NCBI RefSeq assembly: GCF_050920415.1
Contig: NZ_CP169309.1
From: Escherichia coli
Lineage (GTDB): Bacteria > Pseudomonadota > Gammaproteobacteria > Enterobacterales > Enterobacteriaceae
Strand: one strand, 5' to 3'
Length of the DNA: 64,000 nt
The translations under genes and the position numbers were made by a program. Below are positions 61,692 to 61,820 of the stretch, piece by piece (the first letter of the stretch is position 1; every line of letters starts with the position of its first letter). The notes below the pieces were generated by a model. The model had not been told where the DNA came from. It was given only the letters and a program-made list of their open reading frames with translations, and made no database searches.

Positions 61692-61739
61692 AATAGCCCC
61701 TGTAAAATTATGGTTTAGTGAAGCGATCTTAATGAGCAA

Positions 61740-61802
61740 ATATGAACAGCGGCACTGGTCAGGATGAACGGCTTACGGCAGAATATGAACAGATATGAAC
61801 AG
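61740..61802 (-). promoter_or_regulatory. torCAD promoter tor boxes (TorR binding sites)
   Basis: four ATATGAACAG-type decamers (minus strand CTGTTCATAT) at 61740..61749, 61762..61771 (imperfect), 61783..61792 and 61793..61802. Confidence 0.75.
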
Positions 61803-61820
61803 AATGAGTAAAACTCTCTG

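Follow-up and report, generated by a model that had tools for sequence, protein, structure and literature searches.

The short region that separates torC from torR in the DNA analysed here (one stretch of 64,000 nucleotides, referred to below as the window) raises the question of whether its repeated decamers are the sites through which the response regulator TorR controls both genes, and of how closely the arrangement follows the one described in Escherichia coli K-12. The torC-torR intergenic region occupies positions 61692-61820, is 129 bp long, and lies between two divergent genes. We are nearly certain that it is the TorR operator of the divergent torR/torCAD promoters in its canonical K-12 form, and no observation contradicts this assignment. 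As such, the finding is already known, since every element is a described K-12 feature; what is new here is confined to rare box-deletion variants in two other strains and to a putative promoter for torR. The two genes and the elements between them are as follows, in the order of their coordinates.

60519-61691, minus strand: torC, encoding a pentahaem c-type cytochrome, the first gene of torCAD, with its ATG at 61691
61726-61731, minus strand: torC promoter -10 hexamer TAAGAT, placed from a published assignment (PMC10845959) and from conservation
61740-61749, minus strand: tor box 4, CTGTTCATAT, exact and identical to K-12, with its end 8 nt before the torC -10 hexamer
61756-61784, plus strand: putative torR promoter, with a -35-like TGGTCA at 61756-61761, a 17-nt spacer that contains box 3, and a -10-like CAGAAT at 61779-61784
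61762-61771, minus strand: tor box 3, CCGTTCATCC, matching 7 of 10 positions with 3 mismatches, a low-affinity site that corresponds to the published box 3
61783-61792, minus strand: tor box 2, CTGTTCATAT, exact and identical to K-12, abutting box 1
61793-61802, minus strand: tor box 1, CTGTTCATAT, exact and identical to K-12, the half of the tandem high-affinity site that is nearer to torR
61821-62513, plus strand: torR, encoding an OmpR-family response regulator, with its ATG at 61821

The identity of the flanking genes has been established by profile searches. TorC matches the NCBIfam equivalog model NF011606 with 884 bits (cut-off 455) over positions 1-390 of 390, and its ATG start agrees with the annotation in K-12 and in NZ_CP169399.1. 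A longer, TTG-initiated torC reading frame was rejected as a mechanical extension of the annotated one. TorR, a member of the OmpR family (PMC5934670), matches the equivalog model NF008034 with 423.8 bits (cut-off 275), the next-best NCBIfam matches being ArcA, CreB, OmpR, and PhoB. It has the receiver and the OmpR-type winged-helix output domain of an OmpR/PhoB-type regulator. Compared with K-12 TorR, 226 of the 230 residues are identical (98%) and residues 152-230 are unchanged, which leaves no difference from K-12 in the C-terminal 79 residues of the DNA-binding domain. The coding regions of torR (plus strand) and torT (minus strand) overlap convergently by 28 bp (62486-62513), exactly as in K-12.

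The binding sites of OmpR-family regulators are direct repeats spaced by about one turn of the helix. On the torC strand, read from the torR end, the intergenic region is composed of CAGAGAGTTTTACTCATT, box 1 (CTGTTCATAT), box 2 (CTGTTCATAT), TCTGCCGTAAG, box 3 (CCGTTCATCC), TGACCAGTGCCG, box 4 (CTGTTCATAT), TTGCTCAT, and TAAGAT, followed by the torC ATG. The four boxes are direct repeats on this strand with start-to-start spacings of 10, 21, and 22 bp; boxes 3 and 4 thus follow at intervals of about two helical turns, which places all four on roughly one face of the helix. The original prediction had described three perfect decamers and one degenerate decamer in this gap, and direct reading and a pattern search agree on that count. 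The boxes had also been said to extend to about 20 nt from the torR start; box 1 in fact ends 18 nt before the torR ATG, while the distance from the end of box 4 to the torC ATG is 48 nt. Overall, the decamers show the tor box consensus, the direct-repeat geometry, the location in the torR/torC divergon, and a positional correspondence to the K-12 boxes.

The decamers could, in principle, be chance or slippage repeats in an AT-rich intergenic region with no regulatory role, and the tandem of box 1 and box 2 could indeed come from a duplication. Exact CTGTTCATAT, however, has three matches on the two strands of the 64,000-base window, where 0.12 are expected by chance, and none of 100 dinucleotide-preserving shuffles reached three. 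All three matches fall in the torC-torR gap and cluster within 63 bp. Moreover, TorR binding to the torR/torC spacer has been published, and the binding and mutagenesis data for K-12 already refute a chance reading. An accidental origin is therefore given virtually no probability, and the decamers are treated below as TorR sites.

Box 3 needs to be considered separately. When up to two mismatches to CTGTTCATAT are allowed, 64 matches are found in the window against 53.7 expected, which is chance level, and as a result box 3, which has three mismatches, is not significant alone. Its assignment is supported by the repeat finder, which joins it to the other three boxes as a four-copy direct-repeat family (D2) with spacings of 22, 21, and 10, as well as by its identity to the K-12 and published box 3 and by the register of its core across genera. 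Two further box-like decamers, TTACTCATTC flanking box 1 and TTGCTCATTA flanking box 4 (repeat D3), have not been accepted as extra boxes. They match just 5-6 of the 10 box positions, and in the spacer alignment they show no conservation in Salmonella, Edwardsiella, or Providencia.

The comparison with K-12 is the most direct test of the assignment. The torR-torC gap of MG1655 is also 129 bp long, and its alignment with the window spacer is gap-free, with the four boxes identical in sequence and position. Spacer length, the 10/21/22 spacing, and the flanking genes are thus shared with K-12, as is every base of the four boxes. A window position converts to a position of the K-12 record as 1057925 + (61850 - window position). 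The inter-box spacers and the torC -10 hexamer are identical as well. Three substitutions distinguish the two spacers, at 61815, 61705, and 61696, and none of them lies in a box. Those at 61705 and 61696 are both in the torC leader, and the window bases at these two positions are common to most other Escherichia sequences examined. The substitution at 61815 is 6 nt before the torR ATG, in the leader and downstream of the boxes in the torR sense. On the torR strand this base is T in the window and C in K-12, O157:H7, E. albertii, E. whittamii, and the other Escherichia examined, so that, among the sequences aligned, it is seen only in the window. The whole 129-bp spacer is exactly matched by at least one other genome, 2013C-4282. 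Agreement of the box positions with the known TorR footprint, on which the original prediction depended, is likewise found, indirectly, via the sequence identity to K-12 and secondary sources.

The tor boxes of the K-12 torR-torCAD intergenic region were reportedly described by Simon et al. in 1995 and by Ansaldi et al. in 2000. In the latter work, boxes 1 and 2 are said to form a high-affinity site that covers the torR transcription start. Autoregulation of torR is said to be independent of TMAO and TorS, and induction reportedly needs the high-affinity and low-affinity sites to lie near each other on one face of the helix.

More recent sources describe the same sites. Boxes 1, 2, and 4 have been given as CTGTTCATAT and box 3 as CCGTTCATCC, which agrees with it at 7 of 10 positions (PMC9239176). 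TorR binding has been measured to boxes 1, 2, and 4 but not to box 3 alone; box 3 is regarded as a low-affinity site, and its occupancy is probably dependent on box 4 (PMC9239176). Genomic SELEX gave a single TorR peak, which lies in the torR/torC spacer and is obtained with or without acetyl phosphate (PMC5934670). Negative autoregulation of torR is reported in PMC9436347, which cites Ansaldi 2000 for it. TorR binding, the relative affinities of the boxes, and autoregulation are all taken here from the literature.

The relatedness of TorR to other regulators raises the possibility that the repeats are sites for ArcA, another OmpR-family regulator, or for FNR, and not for TorR. In the NCBIfam search TorR scores second best with the ArcA model, which indicates that the two are related, and ArcA-like motifs overlap the TorR sites while a weak FNR-like motif lies over the torC -10 (PMC10845959). 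However, when phosphorylated ArcA (ArcA-P) and FNR were tested on the torCAD promoter, neither bound, whereas phosphorylated TorR (TorR-P) did (PMC10845959). SELEX also identifies the torR/torC spacer as the TorR target (PMC5934670). Assignment of the boxes to ArcA or FNR is therefore considered extremely improbable, and TorR is retained as their ligand.

The torC -10 element has been placed within TTGCT(nnnn)AAGAT (PMC10845959), and the sequence of the torC -10 region, ATAAGATC, is kept in Salmonella, Edwardsiella, and Providencia. Molybdenum-cofactor-dependent control via the torC 5' UTR has also been suggested (PMC10845959). Searching 61300-62100 against Rfam at E<=1 returned nothing, so the torC leader contains no RNA family known to Rfam at this cut-off. 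A consensus scan of 61500-62000 for sigma-70 promoters and terminators called nothing at a sigma-70 threshold of 9 of 12 positions; the torC -10 falls below this threshold, and the putative torR promoter scores 8 of 12. Sub-threshold sigma-70 scores are usual for activator-dependent promoters and for weak autoregulated ones.

On the torR side, TGGTCA and CAGAAT, 17 nt apart, make a plausible torR promoter, with transcription predicted to start near 61791, inside box 2/box 1. In an alignment read by eye, the pattern T(G/A)GTCA-17 nt-CA(G/A)(A/T)AT is kept in Salmonella, Edwardsiella, and Providencia. The -35-like hexamer lies in a non-box block, CTGACCAGTG (61752-61761, minus strand), between box 3 and box 4. 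In Escherichia, Salmonella, and Edwardsiella this block is as well conserved as the boxes, and in Providencia it is almost so. It seems unlikely, but the role of CTGACCAGTG could exceed that of a torR -35 element; for example, it could be a site for an unknown co-regulator.

These elements can be combined into a mechanism for the control of both genes. The abutting boxes 1 and 2 would form the high-affinity site and would be occupied with or without phosphorylation of TorR. Bound there, TorR would cover the torR start region and overlap the edge of the putative torR -10 element. Occlusion of the start and of the -10 edge would keep torR transcription low, resulting in negative autoregulation. 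Phosphorylated TorR would also fill the weaker boxes 3 and 4, which lie 21 and 22 bp further on the same helix face. Box 4 adjoins the torC -10 TAAGAT, and TorR bound there could recruit RNA polymerase and switch torCAD on. If the torC start is assumed to lie 7 nt after TAAGAT, the boxes would span about -83 to -21 from this start, with box 4 at about -30 to -21. This is a position from which an OmpR-type activator could contact RNA polymerase at a promoter that has no good -35 element.

A more restricted interpretation would be that the boxes are activator sites for torCAD only and that torR is not autoregulated in this strain. The torR promoter hexamers have been assigned from sequence, and the strain-specific base at 61815 is close to the torR ATG, both of which could be taken to favour this interpretation. 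On the other hand, boxes 1 and 2 and the putative torR -10 and -35 elements are identical to those in K-12, where the negative autoregulation was reported, and the substitution at 61815 lies in the leader, beyond the boxes. Loss of autoregulation in this strain is thus judged very unlikely. The dual role of TorR put forward in the original prediction, activation of torCAD together with autoregulation of torR, is supported by the identity of the boxes to those of K-12 and by the published K-12 data, and may be expected to apply here. The control region for TMAO respiration is intact and canonical in this strain, so that torCAD should be TMAO-inducible and torR should be autoregulated as in K-12, which matters little beyond annotation.

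Conservation of the operator across genera has been examined at loci retrieved from a genome collection with the exact 20-mer of box 1 plus box 2, CTGTTCATATCTGTTCATAT. The retrieved set is biased to genomes that keep boxes 1 and 2 exactly, so that the conservation of these two boxes within it is by construction. The 20-mer is found at 20 loci. Fifteen of them, from Escherichia, Salmonella, Edwardsiella, Providencia, and Grimontia, have a torR homologue on one side and a torC homologue on the other. The retrieval did not select for box 3 or box 4, and yet the box 3 core GTTCA is in the same register, at +31, in each of these genera, and TTCATAT of box 4, at +53, is invariant in the alignment of the five. 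Salmonella, Edwardsiella, and Providencia also share with Escherichia the torC -10 hexamer TAAGAT, which Grimontia lacks, and the rest of the spacer diverges between the genera. The register of boxes 3 and 4 within this diverging spacer is a further argument against an origin by chance or slippage. Together with the population data described below, the comparison outlines the known operator as a clean phylogenetic footprint.

The remaining five 20-mer loci (L007, L009, L013, L015, and L021) come from metagenome-assembled genomes assigned to Bacteroidales, Lachnospiraceae (two), Clostridia, and Synergistaceae. No TorR, TorC, TorA, or TorT homologue was found within any of these loci; they have been rejected as tor loci and are taken as chance or unrelated hits. 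By our own calculation, about 0.5 chance hits to the 20-mer would be expected under uniform base composition, and five is therefore a mild excess, which is probably compositional.

Outside Escherichia, a closely similar system has been described in Salmonella enterica, in which the torCAD tor boxes have the same consensus, the same four-box layout, a 129-bp spacer, and a TAAGAT -10 hexamer (PMC9239176 and the alignment). The box offsets in the spacer (19, 29, 50, and 72) are identical in Escherichia and Salmonella. Outside the boxes, however, the Salmonella spacer differs, and the 18 nt beside torR are unrelated to those of Escherichia. The pho boxes of PhoB and the OmpR sites at ompF and ompC are, like the tor boxes, tandem direct repeats about one helical turn apart. 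In all of these operators a winged-helix regulator binds head-to-tail and the promoter-proximal site is by or over the -35 region. The tor operator differs from them in its recognition sequence, and also in that its distal high-affinity pair serves in addition to repress the divergently transcribed regulator gene.

Within E. coli, the 501 bp around the site (61500-62000) have matches in 5416 of 5426 complete genomes, all of them annotated torC/torR. These matches are mostly 95-99% identical over the 501 bp, with the majority of genomes at about 95-97%; K-12-type strains are 95.4% identical, and just 16 of the 5416 genomes reach at least 99%. The 129-bp spacer, by comparison, is present in 5416 genomes, with an identity of at least 95% in every one and of at least 99% in 2693 of them. 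The tor locus allele of the window is thus uncommon, and the intergenic operator is far better conserved than its coding flanks. Of 5415 complete E. coli genomes, 5100 (94%) carry the 63-bp segment from box 1 to box 4 without change, which again argues against repeats of no regulatory role. Six matches to the torC-torR region are on records labelled as plasmids; mislabelled replicons, assembly artefacts, and real transfers are all possible sources of these.

Two E. coli strains carry natural variants in which boxes have been lost. In OkiPb01695 (NZ_AP042570.1; L003, locus 301-386) the torR-torC spacer is 86 bp long in place of 129 bp. The deletion is exactly 43 bp, the distance from the start of box 2 to the start of box 4; immediately upstream of the torC -10 there remain two perfect boxes that abut each other, and box 3 is missing. 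The deletion looks like the product of recombination or slippage between tor boxes. In JNEC-KY204 (NZ_AP045180.1; L027, locus 38-176) a 10-bp deletion has removed one copy of box 1/box 2, and box 3 reads CCATTCATCC, with G changed to A in the core, possibly making this a natural allele in which induction or autoregulation is impaired.

These rare strains, lacking one copy or the 43-bp box-to-box segment, suggest that the repeats do recombine, a point in favour of slippage-derived repeats; the conservation and binding data given above nevertheless favour a TorR operator. It has also been considered that the tor boxes, being direct repeats, are substrates for recurrent promoter-rewiring deletions in natural E. 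coli, an idea that at present seems rather unlikely to hold. Provided that the two variants do not result from assembly errors, they could represent natural alleles of TMAO respiration that are constitutive or have lost induction, and they could serve as ready-made promoter mutants.

Some other features of the window can be mentioned. Positions 58500-64000 are identical to the corresponding part of NZ_CP169399.1, from strain MFDS1022581. A 181-bp tandem repeat (3.7 copies, 98% matches) occupies 23658-24320. It starts just after the position of a tRNA-Ser gene annotated in NZ_CP169399.1 and is directly adjacent to a GGDEF-domain gene, which carries a frameshift in that record. The window has one repeat unit more than NZ_CP169399.1, to which it is otherwise 99.97% identical. 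A second tandem repeat, with a 100-bp unit (2.3 copies, 94% matches), is located at 33778-34004 in the phoH-efeB intergenic region, and its unit looks like the palindromic elements of the REP/BIME type.
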